Origin: an uncultured virus (IMG/VR IMGVR_UViG_3300035183_001031)
Lineage: Duplodnaviria; Heunggongvirae; Uroviricota; Caudoviricetes
Reading direction: 5' to 3' (one strand)
IMG/VR virus record: IMGVR_UViG_3300035183_001031
Length of the DNA: 20,000 nucleotides
Shown: positions 3 to 17,923 of the stretch, one piece after another
Position numbering within the stretch: position 1 is the stretch's first letter
How the letters are laid out: the number at the start of each line of letters is the position of its first letter
Translations under genes and position numbers: made by a program
The notes under the pieces: generated by a model
What the model was told of the DNA's origin: nothing
Database searches by the model: none
The model's input: the letters and a program-made list of their open reading frames with translations, nothing else

Positions 3-920
3 GCCATAAAGGCAAGGCTCGGCGAGCCCAAAAAGACGGTTCCAAGGAAGAACGAGTACGGGTTTCTCTGCCCGAATCCGAAGTGTACAAGCGCAAAGCA
101 AGGTAAGGTCCGTCTCTGGGTGAATCCAGAGAAGGATACCTTTAACTGTTGGCACTGCGGCTTTAGCGGCAAGTCCTTGGCGGCCATCATGGTCCAGGGA
201 TCGAAGGAGCATAGGGAGTACCTGGAGTCTAAGCCGACCACAGAGAAGAGCATCTTTGCCAGACCCGTTGGGGTGCAGAAGCCACGGTGCGTCAGCCTTC
301 CTGTCGGATTCACGCCGATTCGTCTGAGCGGTGAGGCCAGAGAGGCCCCGTACGTCTCCTACCTGAGGCGGAGGGGTGTATCCGATGATACGACGGTGCT
401 CTATCGGATGGGCTATGTGGACTTCGGTCCCCTCTCCGGCCGTGTGGTGATTCCATCATTTGATGCGCTGGGTGCTCTTAACTTCTGGTCAGCACGGAGC
501 ATCTATCCGTGTGAGAAGACGTTCAGCTATCGGCTTCCAGATGCATCAAAAGATGTGGTGTCGAACGAGCACCTGGTCAATTGGACGGAACCGGTCTATC
601 TGGTCGAAGGGATATTTGATGAGGTGGCTATCGGTCCTCAAGCGATTAGTCTTTATGGAAAATTTTTGCAGCCTTTGCTTGCCAAGCGACTTGTGGAGCG
701 TCGCCCTCCCATTGTCTACGTCTGCCTCGATTCTGATGCTAGAAAAGAGGCACTCGAGCTGATGGAACAGCTGGTCGGATATGACATCACGTGTGCCTTG
801 GTTGACCTGCCAGGTAAGGATCCGGCAGAGTTGGGTTCTGCTGTCGTTCAGAAGGCTGCCAAGGAGTCTCGAATGGTCACCGGCTCGGTCGGACTACTCG
901 CTGTGGAGGGTCGACTGTGA
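3..920 (+). CDS. DNA primase (Zn-binding domain + TOPRIM), 5' end outside the window
   Basis: The frame of ORF 120..920 is open back to position 3 (AIKARLGEPKKTVPRKNEYGFLCPNPKCTSAKQGKVRLWVNPEKDTFNCWHC), completing a CPxxxC...CxxC zinc motif. It also has YLRRRGV, GRVVIPS, TOPRIM YLVEGIFD, DxD motif CLDSDA and GKDPAE. Confidence 0.85.
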   Translation, partial: AIKARLGEPKKTVPRKNEYGFLCPNPKCTSAKQGKVRLWVNPEKDTFNCWHCGFSGKSLAAIMVQGSKEHREYLESKPTTEKSIFARPVGVQKPRCVSLPVGFTPIRLSGEAREAPYVSYLRRRGVSDDTTVLYRMGYVDFGPLSGRVVIPSFDALGALNFWSARSIYPCEKTFSYRLPDASKDVVSNEHLVNWTEPVYLVEGIFDEVAIGPQAISLYGKFLQPLLAKRLVERRPPIVYVCLDSDARKEALELMEQLVGYDITCALVDLPGKDPAELGSAVVQKAAKESRMVTGSVGLLAVEGRL

Positions 921-3900
921 GGATCGCTCACATCTCCGACCTGCATATTCGAAACTTTAAGTATCGACGTGAGTACCGTGAGGCATTCCTCGACCTGTAC
1001 GACCAGCTACAGAAGTTAAAGCCAGATCTGGTCATCAATACAGGTGACACCGTTCACAGCAAGCTGGCGGTGTCTCCAGAGCTGTTCGATGACGTGGCCA
1101 ACCATTTTCTAGCTGTGACGGAGATTGCTCCGTACTGGTTGATCCTCGGAAACCATGACCTTAACCTGAAGAACATCGGTCGGACTGATGCCATCTCACC
1201 GATTGTGAGAGCCTTACAGGGGAGAACGAGGCATGAGCTCAGGATGGCAAAGAGTCATCCTGAGCGGATGCTTGATGGCAGGTTTCCGAACTTCGCCTTC
1301 TATCCGTATGACATCCGCCAGCCGGTCTGTGAAATCATCCCGCTTGAGGGCGATATCAACATCGGCCTATATCACGGATCGATCGCGGGGTGTGTCACCG
1401 ATCAGGGCTTCGTGATGGAGGAGGCCGAGTCTGAGGTCGACCAGTTCGGGCGGATGGATTTTGTCATGATGGGTGACATCCACAAGAGGCAGTCCTTCCG
1501 AGATGGAAGGATGCAATATCCGGGTTCGCTCATCCAACAGAACTACGGAGAGGAGCTTGTTAAGGGCTTCCTTATCTGGGATATCCAAGATCGGGACAGG
1601 TTTAACGTTGAGTTCTGCCCAGTGAGGGCACCGGGTCGGTTTTACACGATCCAGGTGCCCGCCAGCCTCGACCTATCAGGCATCGATGTCCCCAAGGGTT
1701 CACGCATCAGAGCAATGGTCCAGGGCGAACTCTCTCCCTCGAAGAGACTGCAGTTGGAGGAGGCCCTGAACAAGAAGTTCGAGCCGATCGAGGTTATCAC
1801 ACCGGACTTCTTCGGTGAGAAGGTCTCGATGGCGGCTTCTGATAACATCGATAGCCTGGTCGGATCTCGTGAACAGATGATGCGGGATCACCTGAAGGAG
1901 AAGGGGATCGATGGGACCGAGGCCGATGAGGTCATCAAGCTCTTTAATCATTTCGAGAAGGACTTGGAGCTCGATGGATCTGCCCGCGGAACGACCTGGA
2001 AGCTATTACGGGTGGCCTGGGATAACATGATGAACTATGGTGAAGGGAATGTCCTAGATTTCACGAAGTTGAGGGGCCTTGTCGGAGTGTTCGCCCCGAA
2101 TGCCTCAGGGAAGTCCTCCATCTTTGACATTGTCCTGCAGTCTCTTTTCGATAAGGTTACCAAGGATGTTCCACGAAACATTGATCTGATAAACGATAAC
2201 AAGGACTTTGGGAAGATGGTCGTGGAGTTTGAGGCGAATGGGAAGTCCTACTGCATCGAGCGTTCGATCGAACGTATTCACTACGGTCAGCGAAAGCTTG
2301 CAGAGACGAAGCAATGGGGTAAGACCAACCTCGATTTCTCAAGCGCCAATGATTCATTGAACGGAACCAGTAGGCCAGAGACCGAGCGTGCGATCAGGGC
2401 GATCGTTGGGAACTTTGACGATTTTGCTTTGACCACAATGGTGTCACAGAACCCAATTTTTGGGCTCCCTGGAGGCGGTGACATCATCAACTGTCGGGAG
2501 ACGGACCGGAGGAAGATCCTCTTCAGGTTCCTTGATCTCGATGTGTATGAGAAGGTCAATCAGGCGTGTAAGGATGAGCTGAAGACGATCGTTGGAAATC
2601 TCAAGGGACAGGATCGAGAGGCCCTTACGAGGCAGTTGGAGGAACTCGAGTCCGAGCTTCTGCATAAGCAGACTATGCTTGCGGCTGAGCGCGCTGATCT
2701 TGATAAAAACGAGGCGGCTCTCGCGATGAAGAGGCAGGAGCTGGCACGACTGGAGGCTGACGATAGGGCTCAAGATGCCTGTGATATCGCTAAGCTCGAC
2801 GACGCATCGGCGATGGCCTCTGTCAAGCTGAGAAAGGCCATCGTTGCCCATGAGAAACTCGAGAAAGCTCGAGTTGAGGCAGAAGAGATATACTCAAATC
2901 TGCTCAAAAACAAGCCCGAGAGGCCCTCGATCACGCTAGAAGAGCTGACTGAGAGGATGGAGAGGGTGCGGACCGAACGTGAGTCCGCCAAGGTTAATCT
3001 AGCAAAACAGAAAGATGCCCTAGCGAGAGGTAAGAAGGCTCTCGTTATTCTTGACGAGGTTCCCTGCGGGGGAAAATTTCCGACTTGTAAGTTCATCAAG
3101 GATGCAAGCGAGTTTTTGACACAGAGAGAGATCGTTGAGGCGGCGATGAGGTTGTATGAGACCGTTGTCAACGTCTCAAATTCTGAGATTTCAGCCCTTG
3201 AGGGTTTCGAGGTGATGCATGTTGAGGTCTCTCGTTGGGAACGTCAGGTCGTTGAGGCGAAGGCCAAGCTCGAGCGTCTGAGCATGGAGGCAAAAGCTGC
3301 ATGGGACGTCCGTTTAGCGGCCCTTGAAATGAGCCAGGAGGCCGATCGAGCCCTTGACGAGGCCTTGAAGAAGCTCGATCCGACGATTGGACAACAGATC
3401 AAGGACATGGAGGACAGCATTGAGCGCCTTGAAGATGCCGTCAATGACTGTGAGAAGAAGATCGAGCTGTGCCTGAGGCAGATCGGAGCCGCTGAGGCGA
3501 AGAAGACTGCGGTGGAGGCCGAGATCGCTAAGCTTGAAGAGATGAAGCGGAGGGTACGGGCCCATGAGCGTCTTGTCGAGCTTACTGGGAAGAACGGATT
3601 GCCATATCGGATCCTCACGCTTGTCCTTCCGATCATCAACGATGAGATCTCAAAGATCTTAACTGGGATCGTGAAGTTCAATGTCTTCTTCGAGGATGAT
3701 CCAGAAGAGCAGACCGTCAGCCTCTTCATCCGCTATGGGGATTATAAGAGTCGTCCACTTTCGCTAGGGTCTGGAGCTGAGAAGTTCATCGCCTCTTTGG
3801 CAATTCGGGTGGCCCTTCTCAGCGTCTCTTCACTTCCTAAGACGGATATTCTGATTATCGACGAGGGCTTCGGAAAGCTCGACCCGGAACACCTCGAGGC

Positions 3901-4042
3901 TCTACAGAAGATGTTTGAATACCTAAGAGAGGCGTTCGGAACGGTTTTCATCGTCTCACACGTTGATTCGATGAGAGACGTCGTCGACCATAGCCTTGAT
4001 ATCACAAGTCAGGACGGATATGCACACGTGGAGGCGATCTGA
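917..4042 (+). CDS. Fused SbcD/Mre11 nuclease - SbcC/Rad50 ATPase (T4 gp47-gp46-like), 1041 aa
   Basis: N-terminal metallophosphoesterase motifs HISDLH, TGDTVH, GNHD, YHG, GDIH. Then Walker A FAPNASGKSS, a long coiled coil with central CGGKFPTC, signature-like LGSGAEK, Walker B/D-loop ILIIDEGFGKLD and H-loop IVSH. GTG start overlaps the primase stop (GTGA); GGAGGG upstream. Confidence 0.9.
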   Translation: MRIAHISDLHIRNFKYRREYREAFLDLYDQLQKLKPDLVINTGDTVHSKLAVSPELFDDVANHFLAVTEIAPYWLILGNHDLNLKNIGRTDAISPIVRALQGRTRHELRMAKSHPERMLDGRFPNFAFYPYDIRQPVCEIIPLEGDINIGLYHGSIAGCVTDQGFVMEEAESEVDQFGRMDFVMMGDIHKRQSFRDGRMQYPGSLIQQNYGEELVKGFLIWDIQDRDRFNVEFCPVRAPGRFYTIQVPASLDLSGIDVPKGSRIRAMVQGELSPSKRLQLEEALNKKFEPIEVITPDFFGEKVSMAASDNIDSLVGSREQMMRDHLKEKGIDGTEADEVIKLFNHFEKDLELDGSARGTTWKLLRVAWDNMMNYGEGNVLDFTKLRGLVGVFAPNASGKSSIFDIVLQSLFDKVTKDVPRNIDLINDNKDFGKMVVEFEANGKSYCIERSIERIHYGQRKLAETKQWGKTNLDFSSANDSLNGTSRPETERAIRAIVGNFDDFALTTMVSQNPIFGLPGGGDIINCRETDRRKILFRFLDLDVYEKVNQACKDELKTIVGNLKGQDREALTRQLEELESELLHKQTMLAAERADLDKNEAALAMKRQELARLEADDRAQDACDIAKLDDASAMASVKLRKAIVAHEKLEKARVEAEEIYSNLLKNKPERPSITLEELTERMERVRTERESAKVNLAKQKDALARGKKALVILDEVPCGGKFPTCKFIKDASEFLTQREIVEAAMRLYETVVNVSNSEISALEGFEVMHVEVSRWERQVVEAKAKLERLSMEAKAAWDVRLAALEMSQEADRALDEALKKLDPTIGQQIKDMEDSIERLEDAVNDCEKKIELCLRQIGAAEAKKTAVEAEIAKLEEMKRRVRAHERLVELTGKNGLPYRILTLVLPIINDEISKILTGIVKFNVFFEDDPEEQTVSLFIRYGDYKSRPLSLGSGAEKFIASLAIRVALLSVSSLPKTDILIIDEGFGKLDPEHLEALQKMFEYLREAFGTVFIVSHVDSMRDVVDHSLDITSQDGYAHVEAI

Positions 4043-6179: not shown

Positions 6180-7853
6180 ATGAAGAAGTCCTCTGTCAGA
6201 GAGGAGATCCTTCGTTGCGCACGGGAACCTGACTACTTCATCAACAAGTACGTCAAGATTCGCCACCCGACTCGAGGTCTGGTTCCATTTAAGACCTTTG
6301 AGTATCAGAAGAGCGCCCTCGACTCCTTCCACAAGAAGAGGTTCAACGTGATTTTGAAGTCCCGCCAGATGGGCTTCACAGAGATTACGTCTGCCTTCAT
6401 CACGTGGTTAATCCTCTTCCATCCGAACGCATCCGTTCTCTGCCTTGCGACCAAAGCTGAGACGGCCAAGAACGTTATTAGAAGGGTCAGAACCGCCCTA
6501 AAGAACGTCCCAAAGTGGCTGCTGATCTCAGATGTCACGACCGACAACAAGACCTCGATCGAGCTCTCGAACGGATCTTGGGTCAAGTCGGTCGCCAAGT
6601 CAGCCGATGCCGGTCGCTCTGAGGCTCTTACGTTGTTGGTCATCGACGAGGCCGCTCACATCGAGGGATTCGATGAGATCTGGGCCGGTCTCAAGCCGAC
6701 TGTCTCGGCTGGCGGTCGTATCATCATGATGTCTACCCCTTTCGGCGTCGGAAACGTCTTTAATCGTATCTACGAGGATGCGGTTAAGGGGGTCAATGAC
6801 TTCAACCCGATCAAGGTTGAGTGGTGGAAGCATCCCGAACACATCTCGGATTTGACGATTGATCCTAAGACCGGGAAATACACCTCCTCCTGGTTTCGAA
6901 AGGAGACCAAGGGACTTAGTGCTCGAGAGATCGCGCAGGAGTACGAGTGTGAATTCCTTTCCTCCGGTGACACGTTTTTCACCGCTGAGCTCATTACTCT
7001 TGTTCGCGACGGGCTTCTGCCCAATTCTGGCTTTGAGAAGGGCTGGCAGGTGTATAAGGATCCAGTCAGAGGATCGCAGTATGTCATGGGCATCGACTCA
7101 GCGACCGGTAAGGGTGATGATAACTCAGCTGTGGTGATCTTCGAGGTCCAGACGATGGAGCAGGTCGCTGAGTTCAGCCAGAAGATCCTTCCGAATGAGT
7201 TTGCGGCTGAGATCTGCAAGTACGGGACGTTATTCAATAACGCTCTGATGGTGATTGAGAACAACGCTGTCGGTCTGGCGGTGATTGAGCACGTTAAGCT
7301 GGCAAACTATCCGAACTTCTTCTATTCCAAGAAGGGCGCGAAGGCCGGCGATAGGCTCGGTGATCCCGGCCATGCTGCCGAGGGATCGATGCCCTCTCAG
7401 TACGTTCATGGTGTCATGACCCTTGGTCCGAACCGTCCGTTTATGCTCTCGAAGTTGGATGAGCTCATCCGTCTTGGCGCTGTGAAGATGCACTCGGCGA
7501 GGTTCCTCGATGAGATGCAGACATTCATTTGGAACAATGGGCGTCCTGAGGCCCGTGCTGGAAAACACGATGATCTCATCATTGCCGCCGCATTGGCGGT
7601 ATTCGTTCGTGATAACCTCTGGGGCGGAGTCTATAACACTCTGGACCTTACTGCTGCGATGATCAAGTCGATGCATGTGGTCCGCCCTGTCAACACACAG
7701 ATCCATGGTGCATCAAAGAACCCGGATCATGTCCCGGTTCGGGCGCTAGGAGTCTTTAACACCCCTGCGCGACCCTACGTTATGCAGATGCCGAACGGTC
7801 GGTACATCGACCTGATGGCGGAGATGGGAATGTTCGTCCCCAGAAAGGGATAA
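6180..7853 (+). CDS. terL: Terminase large subunit (T4 gp17-like), 557 aa
   Basis: Adenine-binding YQ, Walker A KSRQMGFT, Walker B LLVIDEAAHI, motif III MSTP, QEYECEF, RNase H-like nuclease GIDSATGKGDDNS, IENN and HDDLIIAAALA. Confidence 0.95.
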   Translation: MKKSSVREEILRCAREPDYFINKYVKIRHPTRGLVPFKTFEYQKSALDSFHKKRFNVILKSRQMGFTEITSAFITWLILFHPNASVLCLATKAETAKNVIRRVRTALKNVPKWLLISDVTTDNKTSIELSNGSWVKSVAKSADAGRSEALTLLVIDEAAHIEGFDEIWAGLKPTVSAGGRIIMMSTPFGVGNVFNRIYEDAVKGVNDFNPIKVEWWKHPEHISDLTIDPKTGKYTSSWFRKETKGLSAREIAQEYECEFLSSGDTFFTAELITLVRDGLLPNSGFEKGWQVYKDPVRGSQYVMGIDSATGKGDDNSAVVIFEVQTMEQVAEFSQKILPNEFAAEICKYGTLFNNALMVIENNAVGLAVIEHVKLANYPNFFYSKKGAKAGDRLGDPGHAAEGSMPSQYVHGVMTLGPNRPFMLSKLDELIRLGAVKMHSARFLDEMQTFIWNNGRPEARAGKHDDLIIAAALAVFVRDNLWGGVYNTLDLTAAMIKSMHVVRPVNTQIHGASKNPDHVPVRALGVFNTPARPYVMQMPNGRYIDLMAEMGMFVPRKG

Positions 7854-7856
7854 TCG

Positions 7857-9692
7857 ATGGCCGATGAATCTGTCTGGAAGAGGCTTACGCGGCTCTTCAG
7901 GAGCGGACCGGTCGTCCGTCATAAGATCGCAGGTGGGGAGAGGCTGGTCCAGCCTCAGGGGACCGCAAGGGCCTTCAAGAAGGAGCTCTCCTCACTCTAT
8001 GTGCGAACCCTGGCGAGCTACGCCAGTTATGAGCGACTTAGTCGATACAGCGACTATAACGAGATGGAGTATACTCCAGAGCTCCACTCGGCGTTGGACA
8101 TCTACGCTGACGAGGCGACGGTAAAGAACGATGACGGCGATGTGATCGAGATCACCTCCAAGAACGCCGAGATCAAGGAGGTTCTCGAGGAGCTCTTTTT
8201 CGAGATCATCGACATCAACTTTAACGCCTGGTCATGGATGCGTCATTTCTGTAAGTTCGGTGACCTCGTGCTGTTCGTCGATGCGACGGAGGAGAACGGA
8301 ATCTTAAACCTTATTCCGATCCCGATCAATGAGATCGAGCGTGAGGAGGGACACGATCCAAAGGATCCGCTGGCCGTCCAGTTCCGTTGGCAGACCAGGG
8401 GCAACATGATCATCCAGAATTGGCAGGTGATCCACTTTAGGTTGCTTGGAAACGATGCCTATCTGCCCTATGGATCTTCAGTGCTTGAGCCAGCCCGTCG
8501 GATTTGGCGGCAGTTGATCCTGATCGAGGATGCGATGTTGGTCTATCGCATTGTTCGGTCTCCGGAGCGTCGTGTGTTCCACATCGAGATCGCAAATACG
8601 CCTCCGGAACAGGTGGACGCCTTCATCGAACAGGTGAAGACGCAGATGAAGCGGAACACGATCATTGATTCTACGACTGGTCGTGTTGATCTTCGCTATA
8701 ACCCACTCTCGGTGGAGGAGGATTACTTCCTTCCGAAACGCGGTGAGCAGAAGTCCCATATCGACACGCTGACCGGCGGTCAGTTTACCGGTGACATCGA
8801 GGACGTCCAGTACATCCAGTCTAAGATGTTTGCGGCTCTCAAGATCCCCCGTGCGTATCTCGGTTACGAGGACCAGCTCGGTTCTAAGGCCACCCTCGCC
8901 CAGGAGGACGTTCGTTTTGCCAAGACCATCGAGCGCATCCAGGCGCTCTTCGTGGCTGAGCTAAACAAGATCGCGATTATTCACCTGTATCTTCTAGGAT
9001 ATCGTGGGGACGATCTTGTCAACTTCAACATTGCGATGGGCTCTCCGTCGACGGTGGCGGAACAGCAGAAGTTGGAGCTCTGGAGGATGAAGCTTGAGAT
9101 CGCCGGCATGGCCCAAGAGGGCGTATTCGACCGTGGCTTCGTCTATCGAAAGATCTTCAATCTGAATGATAGGCAGATCGCCACCATCAAGGACGGAAAG
9201 AGGATCGACAAGCTGGAGGACATTCTCCTAGCCTCGATTGAGCAGTCCGCAACGTCTTCCGTCGAAGGTGAGGCACCGGCCGTTGAGCCGCCAGCCCCAG
9301 GCGCCGATGAGCTTCCTCAGACCCTTGGTGGGCCTCCCGGTGGAGCTCCGGATGTCTCTAAGGTCCAGCAGATTGCATCCCACGTCCGTACCGGCAAGAG
9401 CCTGGTTGAGAAGTTCAATCCTGGATCCGCAGGCAACGATGCCTTCATTGCCGTCGATAAGGGAAAGGACCTCTTCTCGACCGGAGAGAATCCTCTGAAG
9501 TTGACCTTTGGCACCGAGAAGCAGACCGCATCGGATCCGTTCGATCGTCGGGCACTACGACGGATGATCACCCGTCCGTTTGCCATGTGGGAGAACGATG
9601 AGGATCCGAAGATGCCGGGCGAGGACGAGATCGATCAGGTCGAGGAGATGCTTCTTAGAGTCTCTGAGACTATCAACGACCGCCGTGGATGA
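7857..9692 (+). CDS. Portal protein (T4 gp20-like), 611 aa
   Basis: gp20 motifs LIEDAMLVYRIVRSPERRVFHIE, EEDYFLPKRG, IDTLTGG, IEDVQY, ALKIP, EDVRFAK; follows terL. Confidence 0.95.
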   Translation: MADESVWKRLTRLFRSGPVVRHKIAGGERLVQPQGTARAFKKELSSLYVRTLASYASYERLSRYSDYNEMEYTPELHSALDIYADEATVKNDDGDVIEITSKNAEIKEVLEELFFEIIDINFNAWSWMRHFCKFGDLVLFVDATEENGILNLIPIPINEIEREEGHDPKDPLAVQFRWQTRGNMIIQNWQVIHFRLLGNDAYLPYGSSVLEPARRIWRQLILIEDAMLVYRIVRSPERRVFHIEIANTPPEQVDAFIEQVKTQMKRNTIIDSTTGRVDLRYNPLSVEEDYFLPKRGEQKSHIDTLTGGQFTGDIEDVQYIQSKMFAALKIPRAYLGYEDQLGSKATLAQEDVRFAKTIERIQALFVAELNKIAIIHLYLLGYRGDDLVNFNIAMGSPSTVAEQQKLELWRMKLEIAGMAQEGVFDRGFVYRKIFNLNDRQIATIKDGKRIDKLEDILLASIEQSATSSVEGEAPAVEPPAPGADELPQTLGGPPGGAPDVSKVQQIASHVRTGKSLVEKFNPGSAGNDAFIAVDKGKDLFSTGENPLKLTFGTEKQTASDPFDRRALRRMITRPFAMWENDEDPKMPGEDEIDQVEEMLLRVSETINDRRG

Positions 9693-9697
9693 CGACA

Positions 9698-9703
9698 TAG
9701 TTA
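9698..9703 (+). promoter_or_regulatory. Candidate late promoter variant TAGTTA
   Basis: Lies in the 26-nt gap after the portal stop, just upstream of GGAGG (9711-9715); one mismatch to TACTTA. Confidence 0.3.
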
Positions 9704-9718
9704 CAGCGTCGGAGGAAA

Positions 9719-10570
9719 ATGGCAATGCAGAAGCTGCGCCACAACAAAAAGAGGAACCTGGGGCTCATCTATGAGTTTTTGACCCGCGAGATCTCAAGCG
9801 CATTGGTTGCGGAGGATCGCAACCGTGCCGCGAAGGCCATGGAGGTCATCTCCAAACATCTTGCTCCCGGGACTGAGCTCTATGATGAGCTCTCTCTCCA
9901 TCGCAAGGTGATGGAGTCAAGGGGCGTCAGCGAGAGGTTAGCTCGACGGATCATCGATGAACTGAAGGCCGCCGGCATTCGTCTTACGGCAAATTCAGCT
10001 CGCCGTGAGGCCGCCAAGTCTGCCATCATCCACGAGATGAACAAGAAGTTTGGAAAGGATATCTTTGATCGGTACCGTATCGCGGACTATACGGCCCATG
10101 CTTCCGTCAATATTCTGATGAATCGTGGGGTCGATGCTAGGCTGGATGAGGCGGTCGACGTCGCTCGCGTTGAGGAATATCTCATAGAGTTTCTTACCAG
10201 CGTACCGGCAGCTCCGGCCAAGTTTGACCGTGACGCATCACTCTATGCCTATAAGACCGCCGTCACTCTTTTTGAAGAGGAGTTCGGCAAGGAGCTAACC
10301 GCTTCGCAGGCCGCCCTTTTGAAGGAATACGTTAGGGTCTCTCTTGGCGGTAATCCGGCGCCACTTCAACGGACGTTTGAGAAGCAGAAGAACGAGCTAA
10401 GGGAGGCTCTCAGGTCTCATCGTCTCGATGAGGTCTTCCAATCTGATCCAGAGATGGCCGCTCGTCTCGATGAGGCCATCGAAGGGCTGGAGAAGCTTGA
10501 CTCTGTGACAGAGGAGGCAGTGGAGAAGCTGATGCTCTATCACAACCTTAGGAAGGAGATCGAGTCGTGA
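9719..10570 (+). CDS. Helical hypothetical protein downstream of portal (283 aa; start may be 9725)
   Basis: GGAGG at 9711-9715 is better spaced to ATG 9725. Basic N-terminus RHNKKRNLGLIYEFL; helical-looking; position in the head cluster suggests a head-assembly role (inference). Confidence 0.8.
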   Translation: MAMQKLRHNKKRNLGLIYEFLTREISSALVAEDRNRAAKAMEVISKHLAPGTELYDELSLHRKVMESRGVSERLARRIIDELKAAGIRLTANSARREAAKSAIIHEMNKKFGKDIFDRYRIADYTAHASVNILMNRGVDARLDEAVDVARVEEYLIEFLTSVPAAPAKFDRDASLYAYKTAVTLFEEEFGKELTASQAALLKEYVRVSLGGNPAPLQRTFEKQKNELREALRSHRLDEVFQSDPEMAARLDEAIEGLEKLDSVTEEAVEKLMLYHNLRKEIES

Positions 10571-12249
10571 ATCCACGTAGGCCTCGCATCCCTGCATATA
10601 AAGACCTTAACGCTCCGTACGAGCGTCAGAGGAAAGATGCCTTTGCCGCTTTAGGAAGTAATCGCAATATTTCAAAGGCGCTTGCCGTTGGAGCCGCGAT
10701 GAAGAACAACGGGTTTAGCGACAAGGAGTTTGATGTTCCCCTTGATTTTGAGGGTATGGACTTTGATGTTAGTGACAGTCCGCAGGAGCCCATTCCTCCA
10801 AAGAGGAAGGGTCCACCGTCAGCTGTCCCTGTGAAGAGGGATCCGTCCCTTGCGAACCGTGGACACTCATATAACCCTGGCATGCCTCCTGAGAGGAGGA
10901 ATTCGGCTCTTGTGGATCGTGGGATGTCTCTTATGAAGAGAGAGGCAGGGGAAGCGCCTCCGCCGGGGGCATCCCGTCGCCGGCGCCCCTCCCAAACGAT
11001 GCCGATGATGCCGAAGGTACAGGTTCCGACCGGTCCATCTCCTTCGGGAAAGTGGGATGTTACTCTCCCGACCGGAGCAGTGGTCCGTGTCCCCGCGGGA
11101 TCCGCTGAAGAGGCGCAGAGGACAGCCGGAGAGTGGTTGAAGCAACAACCACGAAAGCAGGGTGCGTCGGTCGGCGGTATGACGGTTGGAGGTCAGGTTC
11201 CGATTGTCGATCCGAACGCAGAGGTAGTCTGGAAGAACTTTCCTGTCGTTCCTTCTAACGAGTCTAGCGTGGGCGGTTCCATCGGGTCCGGTCCGCAGAG
11301 GCCTCTCGGTGAGATTGGCCTCGAGGCATTCCGACAAATGGTGAACAACCGGATCCAAGAGATCGTCAGAAAGAAGCCGGGCGGCGGCGGCTATAACCTC
11401 TATGCTCCAAATACAGGCAAGAAGAAGAAGCCGAAGCTTGTCGGGGAATTTCCAACTCGTTTAGCGGCAAAGCGTGCGGAGCTGGCCCGGTTCCCACCTA
11501 AGGATCCTGAGCAGCTGAAGCGGGCCCGTAAGCGTCTTGAGAAGCTCGCCAAGGATCCAAAGAAGAGGATCGAGAAGGAGAAGGAGGAGATGGGCGTCAA
11601 GAAGCCACGCCGGGCTGGTAAGCCCGTCGGCGATAGGAAGAAGGCCAAGAAAGAGTCCTTCATCCGTAGCCTGGCAGATGCTCTGAGCGAGAGGCTCTTT
11701 CGGGAAGGAGGACTCCCAGGGTCTCCATGGGATGAGAGGATCTCAGACCTTCCCTTGGATGCTCTGAGCCAGGACAGGAAACTCCACAGGTACCTCCAGG
11801 GAATGGAGAAGGCTTCGTTCGAAGCACTCGGTGATGGCCACCGTGCTCTTGCTAAAGTCATGCGTGGGCTCGCCAAGGTCAATCCAGGGGACATCTCTCA
11901 CGACTCCAACCATGGCAAGATGTCCATGCCGATCACGTTGGACGTCGATGGGGATGAGATCGGTCCGATCCACCTCTACATCGATGGCGGGCACGTCTGC
12001 ATCGAGATCTCTCCGGAGGCACAGAAGTCGATCGCGAGCCTCGATCCGCCCCGCGCTAAGGATATCAGGGGCGGTCTCATGTCATTTCAAGAGGATTATC
12101 TTCCGAAGATTGATCGGGCGCGCTCGGCGTGGAGTGAGAGGGACAACTATCTTGATACCCTCCACAGGAAGTTGGAGAAGATCGTCGGAGGAATGTCTCC
12201 GGTTGAACTCCATCTGGTTCAGCAGCTGATGACCAAGAGGGGGCATTAA
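10567..12249 (+). CDS. Large Pro/Lys/Arg-rich hypothetical protein (560 aa), putative internal head protein
   Basis: GTGA overlap, AAGGAG upstream. Disordered Pro-rich N-half, basic module IVRKKPGGGGYNLY...VGEFPTRLAAKRAE, Lys-rich stretch, ordered-looking C-terminal domain. Confidence 0.75.
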   Translation: MNPRRPRIPAYKDLNAPYERQRKDAFAALGSNRNISKALAVGAAMKNNGFSDKEFDVPLDFEGMDFDVSDSPQEPIPPKRKGPPSAVPVKRDPSLANRGHSYNPGMPPERRNSALVDRGMSLMKREAGEAPPPGASRRRRPSQTMPMMPKVQVPTGPSPSGKWDVTLPTGAVVRVPAGSAEEAQRTAGEWLKQQPRKQGASVGGMTVGGQVPIVDPNAEVVWKNFPVVPSNESSVGGSIGSGPQRPLGEIGLEAFRQMVNNRIQEIVRKKPGGGGYNLYAPNTGKKKKPKLVGEFPTRLAAKRAELARFPPKDPEQLKRARKRLEKLAKDPKKRIEKEKEEMGVKKPRRAGKPVGDRKKAKKESFIRSLADALSERLFREGGLPGSPWDERISDLPLDALSQDRKLHRYLQGMEKASFEALGDGHRALAKVMRGLAKVNPGDISHDSNHGKMSMPITLDVDGDEIGPIHLYIDGGHVCIEISPEAQKSIASLDPPRAKDIRGGLMSFQEDYLPKIDRARSAWSERDNYLDTLHRKLEKIVGGMSPVELHLVQQLMTKRGH

Positions 12250-12251
12250 AG

Positions 12252-12863
12252 ATGGGTGAGCGTAAGATCCTGAGGGAGTGGCTTCCTCTTGAGAGGAAGG
12301 AGGGAGGCAAATTTCTCATTGAGGATGCCCGTGCTTCCGGCGGCAGGCTCGTCCTGAGCGGTCCGATGCAGCGAGCCGAGGCTCCCAACCAGAACAAGCG
12401 AATCTATCCACGTCGGATCCTCCAGCGGGAGTTCGAGAACTACATGAAGGTGGTTCGTGAGAATCGCGCCATGGGGGAGCTTGACCACCCCGAGACCTCC
12501 ACGGTCAGCCTTGAGAAGGTCTCGCACCTGGTACGTGAGATGTGGTGGGATGGCGACACTTGGATGGGGAGGATCGAGGTCCTTCCGACTCCGATGGGTA
12601 AGATCCTTGAGAGTCTTGTCGACAGCGGGGTGACCCTTGGTATCTCCAGCCGTGGCGTCGGCTCGACCATGGCCAACGAGTCTGGCCTGGACCTCGTCAA
12701 GGACGACTTCACTCTTATCTGCTTCGACATGGTCGCAGAACCCTCAACACATGGGGCCTATATGTTCGCCGAGTCAGTGGATAAGAACCGCGGTGCTGTC
12801 CTGTCCCGTCCGGATCGGATCGCTCGGGCTCTCAACGAGCTGAAAGCAAAGGGTGACAAGTGA
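12252..12863 (+). CDS. Prohead core protease (T4 gp21-like), 203 aa
   Basis: NQNKRIYP, AMGELDHP (catalytic His), VSH, TPMGKI, GISSRGVGS (catalytic Ser), FDMVAEPSTHGA. Confidence 0.95.
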   Translation: MGERKILREWLPLERKEGGKFLIEDARASGGRLVLSGPMQRAEAPNQNKRIYPRRILQREFENYMKVVRENRAMGELDHPETSTVSLEKVSHLVREMWWDGDTWMGRIEVLPTPMGKILESLVDSGVTLGISSRGVGSTMANESGLDLVKDDFTLICFDMVAEPSTHGAYMFAESVDKNRGAVLSRPDRIARALNELKAKGDK

Positions 12864-13504
12864 GTCAGAAGCTAAGAGAGACGATCGATCGGATGGTTGA
12901 GGATGCCATCCGGCGGATCTTACCGGAGGTGATGAACGAGGTTTTGCTCAGGACGATTGCGAATGCCGATGTCTTGCAGGAACGTAGTCGACGACAGTCC
13001 GTCCCGATGCCTGAGAAGCATAGGGTCAACCGATCTTCCGTGCAACATGTCGTGAAGAACGTCCAGGCTTCCCGGCGGCCAGCCTCGCTCAGCCAGCTTC
13101 TTGACCCAGAGGCGGGTGCTGATTTCTACCGTGATCCGCGGATGGTCGTGGCTGGGGATGTCCATGAGGAAGAGGCCCCGCAACCTCTTGCCCAGAGGAT
13201 CCAAAGCCTTCCTCCGGCCCTTCAAAGCCTAGCGGAGGGGGTGGATTTGGACGACGATGGCGGTGAGATGTGGGAGGGTGAGATCGGTGACTCGGCCATT
13301 ACGGTCACCGAGATGGGACCCCCTCTTGAGAGGGCGGCCCAGGTCGTCGGGCTCGACTTCTCTCGTATGCAGCGGGCCATCCAGCTGACCGAGAAGAAAG
13401 CTGCGAAGGTTGATCAGTCGGATGCAAGGGCCCGAGCGCAGTTCGAGGAACAGCGCATCAAGATGATGCGTGAGAGGCTAAACGACGGTAAACCGTTGGA
13501 TTGA
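12860..13504 (+). CDS. Hypothetical head-cluster protein (214 aa)
   Basis: GTGA overlap with the protease stop; N-terminal amphipathic helix KLRETIDRMVEDAIRRILPEVMNEVLL. Confidence 0.75.
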   Translation: MSQKLRETIDRMVEDAIRRILPEVMNEVLLRTIANADVLQERSRRQSVPMPEKHRVNRSSVQHVVKNVQASRRPASLSQLLDPEAGADFYRDPRMVVAGDVHEEEAPQPLAQRIQSLPPALQSLAEGVDLDDDGGEMWEGEIGDSAITVTEMGPPLERAAQVVGLDFSRMQRAIQLTEKKAAKVDQSDARARAQFEEQRIKMMRERLNDGKPLD

Positions 13505-13505
13505 G

Positions 13506-14093
13506 ATGAGACGAAGCCTTTTGGAGCTGATGGAGTTCACAGGTGGTCCTTCGGGCTATACGACTGCGTTTACCCGCCCGGATCCATTGGACCCAAACGA
13601 TATAGTCCGGCAGAAGACCCGATCTCGTGCTTCGCAGTTTCCTTACGATCGTCCGATAACTTACGGGAGGTCTAGTCATGCCTCATTTGATGGGGATGAG
13701 AGACAGGATGGGGCCAACGATGGCCCTCCCTTGGCAAGACAGTATCGTTCCGGAAGTCCTCTGTCGGTGTGGGATCGTCTGAGTGACTCGGTCGTGGGAC
13801 CCATCGGAAGTGGATATGAGTCTGAGGTCCAGCCTGGGATCGGCAACCACGGTAGGATCGGCGAGGAGGGCGGAGACATCGATGCCGTCGACCTTGAGAT
13901 CGATGCCATCCAGAGAGACTTTCGCTCATCCTATGAGGAGGATCTCGACTCGGCCGACCCTCCGAACCTGTTCACCCTTCTAACGAGGTTCGATCCAGGA
14001 TCTTCGGCAGAGACATCCCATCCCGGGGATGAAGATGAGACGTACGACATTTATTCTCTATGGGCTGACCGGATGCCCGACCTCGAGGGATAA
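13506..14093 (+). CDS. Acidic, probably disordered hypothetical protein (195 aa)
   Basis: Starts 1 nt after the previous stop and fills the gap to the next gene; rich in D/E/G/S/P. Confidence 0.7.
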   Translation: MRRSLLELMEFTGGPSGYTTAFTRPDPLDPNDIVRQKTRSRASQFPYDRPITYGRSSHASFDGDERQDGANDGPPLARQYRSGSPLSVWDRLSDSVVGPIGSGYESEVQPGIGNHGRIGEEGGDIDAVDLEIDAIQRDFRSSYEEDLDSADPPNLFTLLTRFDPGSSAETSHPGDEDETYDIYSLWADRMPDLEG

Positions 14094-14096
14094 GCA

Positions 14097-14459
14097 ATGA
14101 AGGTTTCGATCACTGAGCTTAGGGACATGGTCGCGGAAGCAGTCCGCCGTACGCTTGCCGAGGCTCCTAAGAAGGGAAGCAGGCGGCCTCCGAAGGACGT
14201 TCCGATGGTCTCGGATGAGGCTGAGGCGGAGGTACGCAGGCGGAGGGTCCGTGGCATTCCGGGCTATGTGCAGTCTGACGTCAATGACTTCTCTAAGCCG
14301 CTCGGCCCCCTGAACACCTACAAGCGTCAAGGGGCTGCAAACATGGGCGGCTGGACGGCCGAGGCGATTGTTAGGAAGAAGATCAAGGAGATGCAGCTTC
14401 GGAAGCTGATCAGGATGATCGTTAACGAGGAAGTGTTGGCACGTCGTGGCAAGCGTTAA
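14097..14459 (+). CDS. Hypothetical head-cluster protein (120 aa)
   Basis: GAGGGA upstream; N-terminal MKVSITELRDMVAEAV and C-terminal LRKLIRMIVNEE amphipathic motifs. Confidence 0.75.
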   Translation: MKVSITELRDMVAEAVRRTLAEAPKKGSRRPPKDVPMVSDEAEAEVRRRRVRGIPGYVQSDVNDFSKPLGPLNTYKRQGAANMGGWTAEAIVRKKIKEMQLRKLIRMIVNEEVLARRGKR

Positions 14460-14637
14460 GGGTTTTCGACCTCTTCAGGTCACTATTGAGGAGACCGACG
14501 GATCCTTTGATAGGATGTTTCGTCGGTTTGTCCGAAGGATCAGGAACGACGGGATCTTGGATGAGGTCCGCGAGCGTAGAGGTTTTAGGAAGCCATCTGA
14601 GCGCCGGCGCCGGTCGGTAAAACGTGCTCCGCGGTAA
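14446..14637 (+). CDS. rpsU: Phage-encoded ribosomal protein bS21 (63 aa)
   Basis: MASVKGFRPLQVTIEETDGSFDRMFRRFVRRIRNDGILDEVRERRGFRKPSERRRRSVKRAPR fits the bS21 pattern (beta strand, ..RRF.R....GIL.E.R.R..F/Y.KPS..RR) in size and basicity. GTG start overlaps the previous gene. Confidence 0.85.
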   Translation: MASVKGFRPLQVTIEETDGSFDRMFRRFVRRIRNDGILDEVRERRGFRKPSERRRRSVKRAPR

Positions 14638-14670: not shown

Positions 14671-15696
14671 ATGAGCATCGTCAATCGAGCCGTCAAGGAG
14701 TCTAAGGAGGTCGCCCGCCTTGCGGTGGACGCCGCCAAGAAAGAGCTCATTGAGGAGCTCAACCCGGTGGTCCAGAGGATCATTGAGAAGAACCTCCGCG
14801 CCGGTACACTCGGCGAGGATCTCGACCGTATCCGTCGTCATGAGGACGGCTACGGAGATGATTTTGAAGAGGGCAAGGACAACATGAAGAAGGATGACAA
14901 GCTTGAGTCGGTCGCGGCCCTTTTCCCGGGCGTGAATGAGGTGGCAGAGATGGACGAGCAGGCGATTGATGAGGCCGAGGAGGTTACTGAGATGGCTGAT
15001 GCCGTCGATGGATCCGCCGACGAGATGGATGAGGAGCTTGAGATCTCCGAGTCGGAGCTTGAGGAGATGTACGCGGAGGCCCTCCAGCTGGAGGTTGACG
15101 TGTCGAAGGGCTTCAAGGAGATGGCCAAGCCGCATGAGCTTGGCGCCGGCGCGAAGTACAACTCGAATTCAGAGCCGGCCGCGGTCACCGACCTGAAGGC
15201 CGGTGAGCACGAGTGGGACGACGAGGTCCCTCCGGCGAAGAAGGATTGGATTCCGGAGTCGATCCGGTCCCTCATCAAGCAGGGCATGGCGGAGAACAAG
15301 GCGCTTGCCGCCCAGAACGCCAAGCTCCGTGAGATGGTGCAGAAGATGCACAAGTCTCTCTCGGAGAGCAACCTCTTGAACGCGAAGATTCTCCACGTTA
15401 ACAAGTTCTTGACCTCCCACAGGCTCACGAATGAGCAGAAGCGGACGGTCATCGAAAATATCGACAAGGGTAGCACGGTCAGCGAGGTCAAGAGGATCTA
15501 TGGCGTCCTTGAGAGCTCGTTTAAGGCAGCCGGCGCGGTCACCGAGTCCGCCGCCCGTAGGCCCCGTGGTGATTCCCAGAAGCGCCGTACGTCCGGTGCA
15601 CCCGACGCGAAGGTCCTCCGTGAGTCGGCGGACAGGGCTGAGGGTAATGGCTTCGGTCGCTGGCAGCAGCTGGCCGGCCTGGTCAACGGCAAGTAA
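14671..15696 (+). CDS. Prohead core scaffolding protein (T4 gp22-like), 341 aa
   Basis: Very acidic centre (DEQAIDEAEEVTEMADAVDGSADEMDEELEISESELEE), coiled coil, SNLLNAKILHVNKF, C-terminal RWQQLAGL; directly precedes the capsid gene. Confidence 0.8.
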   Translation: MSIVNRAVKESKEVARLAVDAAKKELIEELNPVVQRIIEKNLRAGTLGEDLDRIRRHEDGYGDDFEEGKDNMKKDDKLESVAALFPGVNEVAEMDEQAIDEAEEVTEMADAVDGSADEMDEELEISESELEEMYAEALQLEVDVSKGFKEMAKPHELGAGAKYNSNSEPAAVTDLKAGEHEWDDEVPPAKKDWIPESIRSLIKQGMAENKALAAQNAKLREMVQKMHKSLSESNLLNAKILHVNKFLTSHRLTNEQKRTVIENIDKGSTVSEVKRIYGVLESSFKAAGAVTESAARRPRGDSQKRRTSGAPDAKVLRESADRAEGNGFGRWQQLAGLVNGK

Positions 15697-15750: not shown

Positions 15751-17460
15751 ATGAGTGACATGATCAGGGAGATGTCCCGTGACGTTGTGGAGCAGAACCT
15801 TCTCAAGGAGGGGAAGCGCATCTACAACAAGTGGGCGAAGACGGGCCTTCTTGAGGGTCTGGACAAGCAGCGGGCGTACAACGTCGCTCGCCTCATGGAG
15901 AACCAGCTCAAGCAGTTCCTAAAGGAGGCGTCCTCGACGGCCGATATCATCGGCTTCCAGAACGTCGCCTTTCCGATCATCCGCCGTGTCTTCGCGGGTT
16001 TGATCGCGAACGAGCTTGTCTCGGTCCAGCCGATGAGCCTGCCCTCGGGCCTGCTCTTCTACATGGACTATCGCTATGATAGCGTTAAGGGCGGTAACCT
16101 GAACGCGGACTTCACCGCAGGTGGCTCGCTCTTCGGTGAGCGGAACTCGTTGCAGGATGCTAAGGGTGACGGTGGCCCATATAACCTTCAGGGTGTGAGC
16201 TACTCCCTCCGTGAGAGGGTCAGCACCTCGCTCTTCTCGGCGTCGTTTGCACCCCTGACGCTTGCGGATATCGAGTATGATCCTGAGATCTCGAGCTCGC
16301 TCTCGCTCTCGGCGACTGGTTGGAAGAAGCTCACGCTGACGAATGCCTACGCGGCGCTTCAGGCGTCGGGTGCCCTCTACAACCCGGCCGAGCTGAAGAT
16401 GGTCGTCCCGGTCTCGGGATCGTCGATCTCCTTCTCGTCGACGACGGACGGTACTCCGATCCAGATGGCGAAGGTCGCCGGTACCGGCGGCATCAAGGTC
16501 TTCCGTCGCTTTACGAAGTCATCGGGTAACGACCTGGTGTTCGTGGTCTCCGGCACCGCTGCGGACGTTGACGGCACGGCGTACGTCGCCGGCGTCAAGC
16601 TCAGCTATCCGGTTGCTCCGACCCTCACGGGCGGCACCTCCGGTACGCTGGTCCTCGATCCGCTCGAGTCTGATCTCGGTCAGCCGACGGCCATGCCGTC
16701 GATCCCCGAGCTCGATTTCCGCATCGAGTCGGTCGCCGTCACGGCCAAGAGCCGGAAGCTGAAGGCCCGCTGGACTCCTGAGCTCGCCCAGGACCTGGCG
16801 GCCTACCAGAACCTGGATGCTGAGGTCGAGCTCACCCAGGTCCTCTCGGAGCAGATCGCCCTCGAGATCGACCGTGAGATCCTCTCGGAGCTTCTGTTCC
16901 GTGCCACGGGGGCGAACTACTTCTGGTCGCGCGCTCCGGGCAAGTTCCTTGACAAGACGACCGGTAATACTGTCGCCGGCGGCTCCTTTACCGGTACCGT
17001 CCGTGAGTGGTACGAGACCCTGGTCGAGGTCATCATCGATGTGGGCAACGTCATCCAGCGTAAGACGCTGCGCGGCGCGGCCAACTTCCTGGTCACAAGC
17101 CCGGACGTGTCGACGATCCTCGAGGCATCGGTGCTCTATAAGCCGATGTTCGACGCGGCGGACACGATGCAGACCACGATGGGCATCGGTACCGAGAAGG
17201 TCGGTACGTTGTCGCAGCGCTACACGGTCTACAAGGACCCGTACTTCCCGCGGAATAAGATCCTCGTGGGTTACAAGGGATCGAGCTTCCTCGAGACCGG
17301 GTTCGTGTATGCCCCGTACGTGCCGCTCATCGTCACTCCGGTCATCTACAAGTACGATGATCTGACCCCGACCAAGGGCGTCATGACGAGGTATGCGAAG
17401 CAGCTCACCAGGAGCGACTTCTACGGCACGGTCACGGTCATGGATATGACCTTCCCGTGA
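15751..17460 (+). CDS. Major capsid protein (T4 gp23-like), 569 aa
   Basis: KWAKTGLLEGL, LMENQ, VSVQPMSLPSGLLFY, VTAKSRKLKARWTPELAQDL, EIDREI, GAANFLVTSP, YAPYVPL, GVMTRYA. AAGGGAGA upstream; strong C/G third-position bias. Confidence 0.97.
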   Translation: MSDMIREMSRDVVEQNLLKEGKRIYNKWAKTGLLEGLDKQRAYNVARLMENQLKQFLKEASSTADIIGFQNVAFPIIRRVFAGLIANELVSVQPMSLPSGLLFYMDYRYDSVKGGNLNADFTAGGSLFGERNSLQDAKGDGGPYNLQGVSYSLRERVSTSLFSASFAPLTLADIEYDPEISSSLSLSATGWKKLTLTNAYAALQASGALYNPAELKMVVPVSGSSISFSSTTDGTPIQMAKVAGTGGIKVFRRFTKSSGNDLVFVVSGTAADVDGTAYVAGVKLSYPVAPTLTGGTSGTLVLDPLESDLGQPTAMPSIPELDFRIESVAVTAKSRKLKARWTPELAQDLAAYQNLDAEVELTQVLSEQIALEIDREILSELLFRATGANYFWSRAPGKFLDKTTGNTVAGGSFTGTVREWYETLVEVIIDVGNVIQRKTLRGAANFLVTSPDVSTILEASVLYKPMFDAADTMQTTMGIGTEKVGTLSQRYTVYKDPYFPRNKILVGYKGSSFLETGFVYAPYVPLIVTPVIYKYDDLTPTKGVMTRYAKQLTRSDFYGTVTVMDMTFP

Positions 17461-17495
17461 TCCGCTGATCCGGCAGATGTAGCCGGATAATGATC

Positions 17496-17530
17496 AAGGC
17501 TCGGAATTCAATCCGGGCCTTTGTCGTTTT
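17496..17530 (+). terminator. Rho-independent terminator after the major capsid gene
   Basis: Stem AAGGCTCGGA (17496-17505) / TCCGGGCCTT (17512-17521) with one G-U pair, 6-nt loop, followed by TGTCGTTTT. A second hairpin ATCCGGC/GCCGGAT lies at 17468-17488. Confidence 0.75.
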
Positions 17531-17605
17531 ATCGCATGGACTGGCGTCTCACGCCTCATAGGCTGAGGTCAGCGGTGAGCAGCCGTGTCCGTCGTTCGAC
17601 CCTGA

Positions 17606-17923
17606 TCATCCAGATGCTGGCATCAGCTTGATGATCGCATCTAGACCGTGCTCTTTAAGGATGTTGATCCGTCTCGTCATCTCATCGATATGTTCTCGGA
17701 TCGCCCGCATGAAGAAGTCACGATCACGTTTATCACCGAGACAGGCGGTTTGGACATCAAATCGGTTGTCTCCCGGAACTATCTGGGAGAGGACGCTGAT
17801 TCCGCCATTAAAGTCTTGGATATAGCGGTTGTTATTCGACCAACATCCGCGCTCAACCTCGGAGAAGCCCATCTCAAGAAGGATGTTTCGCGTTTCCTCA
17901 TCTTCATACCATGGCTTCATCAT
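17606..17923 (-). CDS. Hypothetical protein (105 aa), the only convincing minus-strand gene
   Basis: Protein-like sequence (MKPWYEDEETRNILLEMGFSEVERGCW...) filling the gap after the capsid terminator; upstream AAGGTG and an extended -10-like TGaTAAGAT. Confidence 0.65.
   Translation of the reverse strand: MMKPWYEDEETRNILLEMGFSEVERGCWSNNNRYIQDFNGGISVLSQIVPGDNRFDVQTACLGDKRDRDFFMRAIREHIDEMTRRINILKEHGLDAIIKLMPASG

Follow-up and report, generated by a model that had tools for sequence, protein, structure and literature searches.

The open reading frame (ORF) at positions 14446..14637 (+ strand) of the window, by which we mean the whole 20,000-nucleotide stretch of DNA analysed here from an uncultured virus of the Caudoviricetes (IMG/VR record IMGVR_UViG_3300035183_001031), is on sequence evidence a genuine phage-encoded homologue of the ribosomal protein bS21, and it stands within a T4-type head module, between the genes of the prohead protease and of the major capsid protein. 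Of the ribosomal protein genes that viruses carry, bS21 is the most frequent, and what it does for a phage is still unproven; within a large group of distant T4-like phages the head-block copy appears to be a fixed and vertically inherited gene. We lean towards a reading in which the protein is synthesised alongside the head proteins, joins the host 30S subunit and there sustains or biases initiation on the Shine-Dalgarno (SD)-led late mRNAs of the phage.

The bS21 gene and its neighbours in the head module

The gene starts with GTG and encodes a protein of 63 aa with a pI of 11.8, which has the make-up of a small basic protein of this family, with a length in the range of about 55-75 aa and the RRF, G and aromatic-x-KPS/T motifs. 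Both the Pfam model Ribosomal_S21 (PF01165; 40.2 bits against a cut-off of 27, residues 14-61) and the NCBIfam equivalog model TIGR00030 (S21p; 39.2 bits against a cut-off of 28.95) recognised the ORF, and it also matched PHROG 21469, annotated as 'ribosomal protein S21'. The bS21 identity put forward in the original prediction, including the expected match to the Pfam model, was thus confirmed. A profile in which the protein was combined with six close homologues detected 32 distinct S21 sequences in the PDB (E <= 0.01), and its positions 20-61 aligned to the bS21 chains of solved ribosomes with the RRF, G and F/Y-x-KPS motifs in register. When 60 homologues were aligned, F28, G36 and K49-P50-S51 proved to be near-invariant, and the residue ahead of KPS stays aromatic, either F or Y, across the bS21 homologues. 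The strings MFRRFVRR and GFRKPS, which had been singled out as departures from the usual consensus, are indeed present in the translation, but such departures are ordinary within the family. Among the six homologues, all of them metagenomic and 73-86% identical to the window protein, 38 of the 63 columns are invariant, indicating a real gene under constraint.

The AF2 model of the protein has a confident pLDDT of 83 and shows helices at residues 21-35, 37-44 and 50-60. A Foldseek search of the PDB with this model returned nothing significant, the single weak match being the bS21 chain of a B. subtilis ribosome (7qv1_b, E = 1.5, TM 0.47-0.51), a result that agrees with bS21 but does not establish it. 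Bacterial bS21 (rpsU) is of the same family, size and charge as the window protein, whose F47 is aligned with the tyrosine of FYEKPT in chains of proteobacterial type and whose C-terminus is short by comparison. For the proteobacterial-type chains, those with 7unr, 9hig and 8jsg at their head, the profile score was 33-34 bits, versus 24.5 bits for 7jil, the chain of Flavobacterium johnsoniae.

The genes of the window form a compact block, almost all of them on the + strand. The head genes, all on this strand, begin with the large terminase (6180..7853; Pfam Terminase_6N, 54.1 bits) and the T4-type, gp20-like portal (7857..9692; Portal_T4, 250.4 bits), and continue, past two ORFs at 9719-12249, with a T4-type, gp21-like prohead protease (12252..12863; Peptidase_S77, 96.1 bits; PHROG 207, head maturation protease). 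There follow two acidic ORFs of 214 and 195 aa (12860..14093), a basic ORF of 120 aa (14097..14459; pI 10.8), bS21 itself, a putative scaffolding protein of 341 aa (14671..15696) and the gp23-like major capsid protein (15751..17460; Gp23, 261.7 bits; PHROG 138). The order on one strand is therefore portal, protease, three small ORFs, bS21, scaffold and capsid, with bS21 as the fourth gene past the protease and the second ahead of the capsid gene; gp20 portal, gp21 (S77) protease and gp23 capsid stand in the order of a T4-type head module. The start of bS21 overlaps the basic ORF by 14 nt and 33 nt separate its stop from the start of the scaffold ORF at 14671, so that the arrangement originally claimed, an overlap with a head-cluster gene followed by scaffold and capsid, is what the sequence contains. 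The gene also lies within ten genes of both the protease and the major capsid protein, as do the head-region bS21 genes in the survey of Chen (2022; PMC9723584).

Several of the neighbouring ORFs have no known family. The two ORFs between portal and protease (283 aa and 560 aa, the latter with a pI of 9.9) matched no Pfam or PHROG family; homologues of them occupy the equivalent position in the related loci L013, L011 and L010, in the Microcystis phage Mel-JY01 and in the Flavobacterium immuto phage, and they count as genes of the head module. The two acidic ORFs past the protease, whose order is kept in L010 and L013, are presumed from their position to encode head-core or assembly proteins. 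The basic ORF that overlaps bS21 likewise lacks a known family, and its homologues directly precede bS21 in L010, L013 and L012.

The ORF at 14671-15696 matched no family and is read as a putative scaffold from its position and composition: it is acidic (pI 5.0) and helical, it ends in a C-terminal RWQQLAG, and 14 of the 15 loci compared have a homologue immediately ahead of the capsid gene, those of Mel-JY01 and of the Flavobacterium immuto phage included. The immuto counterpart, by position and by sequence (35% identity over 119 residues), is immuto35A_203 (8692-9933 of locus L005, MW353176.1), which directly precedes the immuto capsid gene and was deposited as 'DNA polymerase phi-like protein', a name that is probably wrong.

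Related phages and the inheritance of bS21

The only near relative at the level of DNA was the IMG/VR fragment G001, which has 93% of the sampled words in common with the window and a bS21 region identical over 316 shared columns. By capsid protein, the nearest entries of the phage collection were the Flavobacterium immuto phages (43.5% identity in an alignment that covers 75% of the query), LR756511.1 (41.4%, covering 65%), LR756508.1 (39.8%; an uncultured phage of 484 kb), Microcystis phage Mel-JY01 (35.5%) and Rhodothermus phage RM378 (34.4%). LR756508 has an S21 match 2 kb ahead of its capsid gene, and in LR756511 the match lies elsewhere in the genome.

Mel-JY01 (PP395634.1) is a cultured relative whose portal is 39.4% identical to that of the window. 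As in the window, its annotated RpsU (WWT39311.1) follows the prohead protease and precedes the capsid gene, all on one strand; two more genes separate S21 from the capsid gene, the protein is only 29% identical to the window bS21, the GC content of the locus is 35% and the host is a cyanobacterium. This S21 was detected solely through the Pfam model.

A pattern search of IMG/VR gave 600 matches, 598 of which encode a relative of the capsid protein, and the best 80 of these loci were analysed by scanning an S21 profile made from 157 sequences against all of their ORFs. We found an S21 ORF in 42 of the best 80 of the 598 loci, in all 42 on the strand of the capsid gene. In forty of the same 80 loci the sequence ahead of the capsid gene extends over 3500 nt or more, and in 35 of these S21 lies 929-3037 nt before that gene on the same strand, the corresponding distance in the window being 1113 nt; the five loci without S21 are L018, L019, L029, L048 and L086. 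The positive call for L017 comes from the custom profile at 28 bits, the Pfam model having found no S21 in that record. Capsid identity to the window across the relatives ranges from 38 to 79% and the GC content of the compared loci from 0.33 to 0.68. In the capsid tree, the window groups with L010 (GC 0.68, capsid identity 79%) and L013 (GC 0.64, capsid identity 77%) with a support of 100, followed by L011, L015 and L012, and in both L010 and L013 the order of protease, three ORFs, bS21, scaffold and capsid matches that of the window gene for gene.

The phylogeny of S21 agreed with that of the capsid. On a tree of the 42 locus proteins, the labels of four capsid clades require 4 changes where the minimum is 3, compared to a mean of 17.8 after shuffling, and none of 200 shuffles reached so low a number, a statistic that is inflated by near-identical loci with shared labels. 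The two capsid clades that the free S21 tree splits were not rejected in AU tests (p = 0.41 and 0.32), in which the 80 alignment columns resolve little. Since the S21 tree mirrors the capsid tree, the comparison of these sequences points to an old vertical inheritance of the head-module bS21, predating the diversification of the phage group, and the gene is not a recent capture from a host. The S21 of the Pelagibacter phage HTVC008M, in contrast, reportedly came from the SAR11 host of that phage (Mizuno, 2019; PMC6375957).

When each bacterial species was represented by one genome, a pattern scan gave no close cellular relative of this bS21, the sole match being a run of 20 residues in a metagenome-assembled genome (MAG) that is not a relative; the identity to a bacterial MAG S21 is 39% over 33 residues. 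All six homologues obtained by word search are metagenomic, as are the 10 nearest clusters, each of them a singleton. An exhaustive profile search collected 731 proteins with E <= 0.001, no more than 8 of them reaching E <= 1e-10, which indicates that the sub-family to which the window protein belongs is small. Its neighbours in the protein atlas are S21 clusters only, bacterial as well as viral, with scores below 0.9. A tblastn search of 50,697 phage records gave no match at E <= 1e-3 with this query, which is too short and too diverged, and a pattern scan of viral contigs with the bS21 protein alone gave 38 stretches, none of which was confirmed.

Translation signals and comparison with described S21 phages

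SD use was measured crudely, as the presence of a GGAG, GAGG or AGGA core at -18..-4, with curated starts for the window and automatically called ORFs for the comparison phages. In the window, 12 of 19 genes have such a core, compared to 4.08 +/- 1.80 at random positions (maximum 10 in 2000 draws). By the same measure only 2/18 genes were positive in the Rhodothermus phage RM378 and 1/18 in a Flavobacterium phage, both with Bacteroidota hosts, so that the measure, crude as it is, discriminates SD-using from SD-poor phages. The six SD-like sites named in the original prediction were all found, ahead of the starts at 917, 4043, 5462, 9719, 10567 and 18205. Most of the related loci also use SD sites, with a core in 40-100% of their ORFs against a background of 4-21%. 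The supposed novelty of an SD-using phage with bS21 in its head module is therefore not upheld, the same arrangement being present in those 35 of 40 relatives, most of which are SD-rich.

The cultured, Bacteroidota-infecting phages RM378 (L004) and immuto (L005) lack SD enrichment and have no S21 recognised by the Pfam model anywhere in their genomes; the SD-poor LR756508 (L002) does carry bS21 before the capsid gene. The presence of S21 does not simply track SD use in these three genomes, which are too few for a test.

The sole SD-like stretch ahead of the bS21 start is GAGGAAG (14427..14433, + strand), which lies within the upstream ORF, 12 nt before the start codon, a long spacing, with a predicted anti-SD duplex of -6.5 kcal/mol. 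Together with the 14-nt overlap, this position inside the upstream ORF suggests that translation of bS21 is coupled, and its output may be low, given the GTG start and the poorly spaced SD.

From the portal to the capsid gene we found no convincing terminator on the + strand, the single consensus match being one of 5 pairs (12742-12756) inside the protease gene. A stronger terminator-like hairpin with a T-run lies 36 nt past the capsid stop (17496..17521, + strand; 10 pairs, 6 of them G-C), read as a match to the consensus only, as the terminator scan as a whole was unenriched (7 against 6.7 expected). The lack of a convincing internal terminator and the stronger hairpin past the capsid gene argue for a single unit from portal to capsid. 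This hairpin falls in the longest intergenic stretch of the window, a non-coding gap of 187 nt (17461-17647). Promoter scans of the window gave 1 match with one mismatch to the T4 late-promoter motif TATAAATA, against 2.0 expected, and 1 sigma-70 promoter, against 3.3 expected; a late promoter of the T4 type was thus not recognised.

The placement of a phage S21 in the head region and its occurrence in a non-Bacteroidetes setting are already in print. Chen (2022; PMC9723584) surveyed 900 published S21 phages, in which the prohead protease (310 genomes) and the capsid protein (154) are typically 2-4 genes from bS21, and the window resembles them in that its S21 is a few genes from both. The predicted hosts of the survey include Proteobacteria, Bacteroidetes and Firmicutes, and table S11, whose VOG columns were assigned to gene names here by column sums only, adds Aquificae, Spirochaetes, Chloroflexi and others. 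According to the same paper, phage bS21 is transcribed with structural genes in lakes, and a role in late translation was proposed. The head region of those phages is described there as not being one operon. A full-text literature search for phage bS21 together with Shine-Dalgarno and capsid yielded nothing beyond this work.

Among the closest described counterparts are the freshwater Bacteroidetes phages of clades a-e of Chen (2022), which are, like the window, of the large myovirus type, with bS21 within a region of TerL, portal, protease and capsid. They differ from it in several respects: their S21 is on the reverse strand, whereas in the window and in all 42 positive relatives it shares the strand of the capsid gene; their GC content is 31-34%, with Bacteroidetes hosts, against 0.52-0.63 per kb and an SD core in 12 of 19 genes in the window; and their genomes measure 293-331 kb, versus 185 kb for the nearest near-complete relative of the window (G003, 91% complete). 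The original prediction of a lineage apart from the Bacteroidetes type thus stands as far as strand, GC and SD use are concerned, but not as a new kind of host setting, the predicted hosts listed by Chen (2022) for S21 genes near protease or capsid genes being already mostly non-Bacteroidetes. The description of the window as GC-rich needs a similar qualification: at 56% it is fairly so, yet the range per kb is only moderately high.

What is new in this lineage is modest, and it concerns base composition. The top GC value of table S9 of Chen (2022), which lists the 900 genomes, is 0.5101, whereas the values are 0.56 for the window and 0.57-0.68 for its nearest relatives, placing the lineage, at 56-68% GC, above the 51% ceiling of that list. 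A word search of the table found no value of 0.52-0.69 and only four of at least 0.49, a search that an exact '0.5' or another number format would escape. The identifiers of five IMG/VR relatives and of LR756508 were not found in the supplement of that paper.

Possible roles of the phage bS21

In the reading that we favour, bS21 would be produced along with the head proteins, its translation probably being coupled to that of the upstream ORF with which it overlaps, and would enter host 30S subunits at the bS21 site, close to the 16S rRNA 3' end, where it would top up or replace the exchangeable host bS21, and initiation would be kept on, or biased to, the SD-led late mRNAs of the phage at the time when capsid proteins are needed in bulk. 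Late co-expression, incorporation into ribosomes and selectivity for phage mRNAs are proposed here from what is known of the family and by analogy with the work of Mizuno (2019) and Chen (2022). Substitution for the host protein was also proposed for phage S21 by Al-Shayeb (2020; PMC7162821).

The analogy has limits. Mizuno (2019; PMC6375957) reported that bS21 makes up 88% of the viral ribosomal-protein detections and is present in 1310 genomes and contigs, with repeated exchange across phyla, and that the bS21 of HTVC008M, the sole phage bS21 tested for ribosome entry, was incorporated in E. coli ribosomes, translation then being at about 5% of the wild-type level. A simple boost of translation is thus not demonstrated for any phage bS21. 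Like the phage of the window, HTVC008M is T4-like and carries S21, but its gene lies beside CobS, Hsp20 and replication genes and not in the head module, and the protein has 21% identity over 47 residues to the window bS21.

The bS21 of Flavobacterium johnsoniae (PDB 7JIL) sequesters the anti-SD sequence of the ribosome. Such sequestration is an unlikely job for the window protein, because this phage and most of its relatives depend on SD sites. Ordinary Shine-Dalgarno sites serve most phages of the group, that of the window included, and for this reason the Bacteroidetes model, with its masking of the anti-SD by S21, cannot be a general explanation of phage bS21. If its host were found, the lineage could usefully be set against the Bacteroidetes phages, to learn how bS21 acts on a ribosome that reads SD sites.

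An action before or apart from late translation is conceivable if bS21 is packaged, entering the prohead along with the core proteins and being injected with the DNA, to act early on the ribosome or as a DNA-condensing internal protein. The gene lies among others placed like the T4 head-core genes, from protease to scaffold, the pI of the protein is 11.8, and encapsidation was raised as a possibility in the Discussion of Chen (2022; PMC9723584). We nevertheless consider packaging unlikely, as no capsid-targeting leader or tag could be recognised on bS21: the RWxxLAG motif occurs once in the window, at the C-terminus of the scaffold (15658-15678), and a leader shared by the N-termini of the neighbouring ORFs was not significant (E = 0.39). 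The I-E-E of the protein, a possible mimic of a T4 protease site, varies among the close homologues, with I, L, A or S at its first position, and the residues that are conserved are those of ribosomal bS21.

Another conceivable role is that of a regulator working off the ribosome, in which bS21 binds phage mRNA leaders or a phage RNA and tunes the synthesis of scaffold and capsid instead of entering the 30S subunit. The gap to the scaffold gene is just 33 nt and the junction is no better folded than its shuffles (z = +1.19; 181/200 shuffles fold at least equally well), and we judge this role to be decidedly unlikely.

The original prediction had also raised the supply of bS21 to a host that lacks rpsU, the phage adding a 30S protein that its host never makes. 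In this case the GC-rich sub-lineage (the window, L010 and L013) would infect a mat bacterium without bS21, for example of the Deinococcota or Actinomycetota, and the outcome would be a phage-specific ribosome and not a like-for-like swap. Such bacteria exist, PF01165 being present in 6 of 14 control genomes and absent from Thermus, Deinococcus, Thermotoga and Corynebacterium, and GC-rich bacteria without bS21 fit the GC content of the lineage; two DNA runs that contain the stretch are labelled microbial mat metagenome and may be the source sample, and the gene itself is a phage heirloom matched to no host. On the other side, the gene dates back to the ancestor of phages that span 33-68% GC and include at least one cultured member with the same arrangement that infects Microcystis, and a cyanobacterial control genome has bS21, so that the trait is not tied to hosts without bS21. 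A supply of this kind is, in our estimate, very unlikely. The cyanophage marker psbA was found in none of five related records.

That bS21 is a neutral passenger, captured from a host and of no use to the phage, is the least credible reading and a highly improbable one: nothing specific speaks for it, weak start signals being compatible with low expression, and against it stand the same position in 35/40 relatives (from the best 80 of 598 loci) at capsid identities down to 38%, the agreement with the capsid tree, the retention of the family-defining residues, and the purifying selection on viral ribosomal-protein genes reported by Mizuno (2019; PMC6375957).

Two further observations concern other genes. 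Dense arrays of tRNA genes are present in the closest large relatives, G003 (36 Rfam matches, C1:155134-165554) and G004 (26 matches, C1:21939-27903), and the 36 matches of G003 indicate a lineage that invests heavily in translation; G005 and G006, which are less closely related, have 4 and 3 Rfam tRNA matches, respectively, and the window itself has none. At the beginning of the window, Pfam and PHROGs identified a DNA primase (3-920) and, at 917-4042 (+ strand), an ORF of 1041 aa that combines a Mre11/SbcD-like phosphoesterase with a Rad50/SbcC-like ATPase, seemingly as a fusion, with Metallophos at residues 1-225 followed by AAA_23, SMC_N and the SbcC Walker B. In T4, the Mre11- and Rad50-like functions are encoded by two genes, gp47 and gp46.
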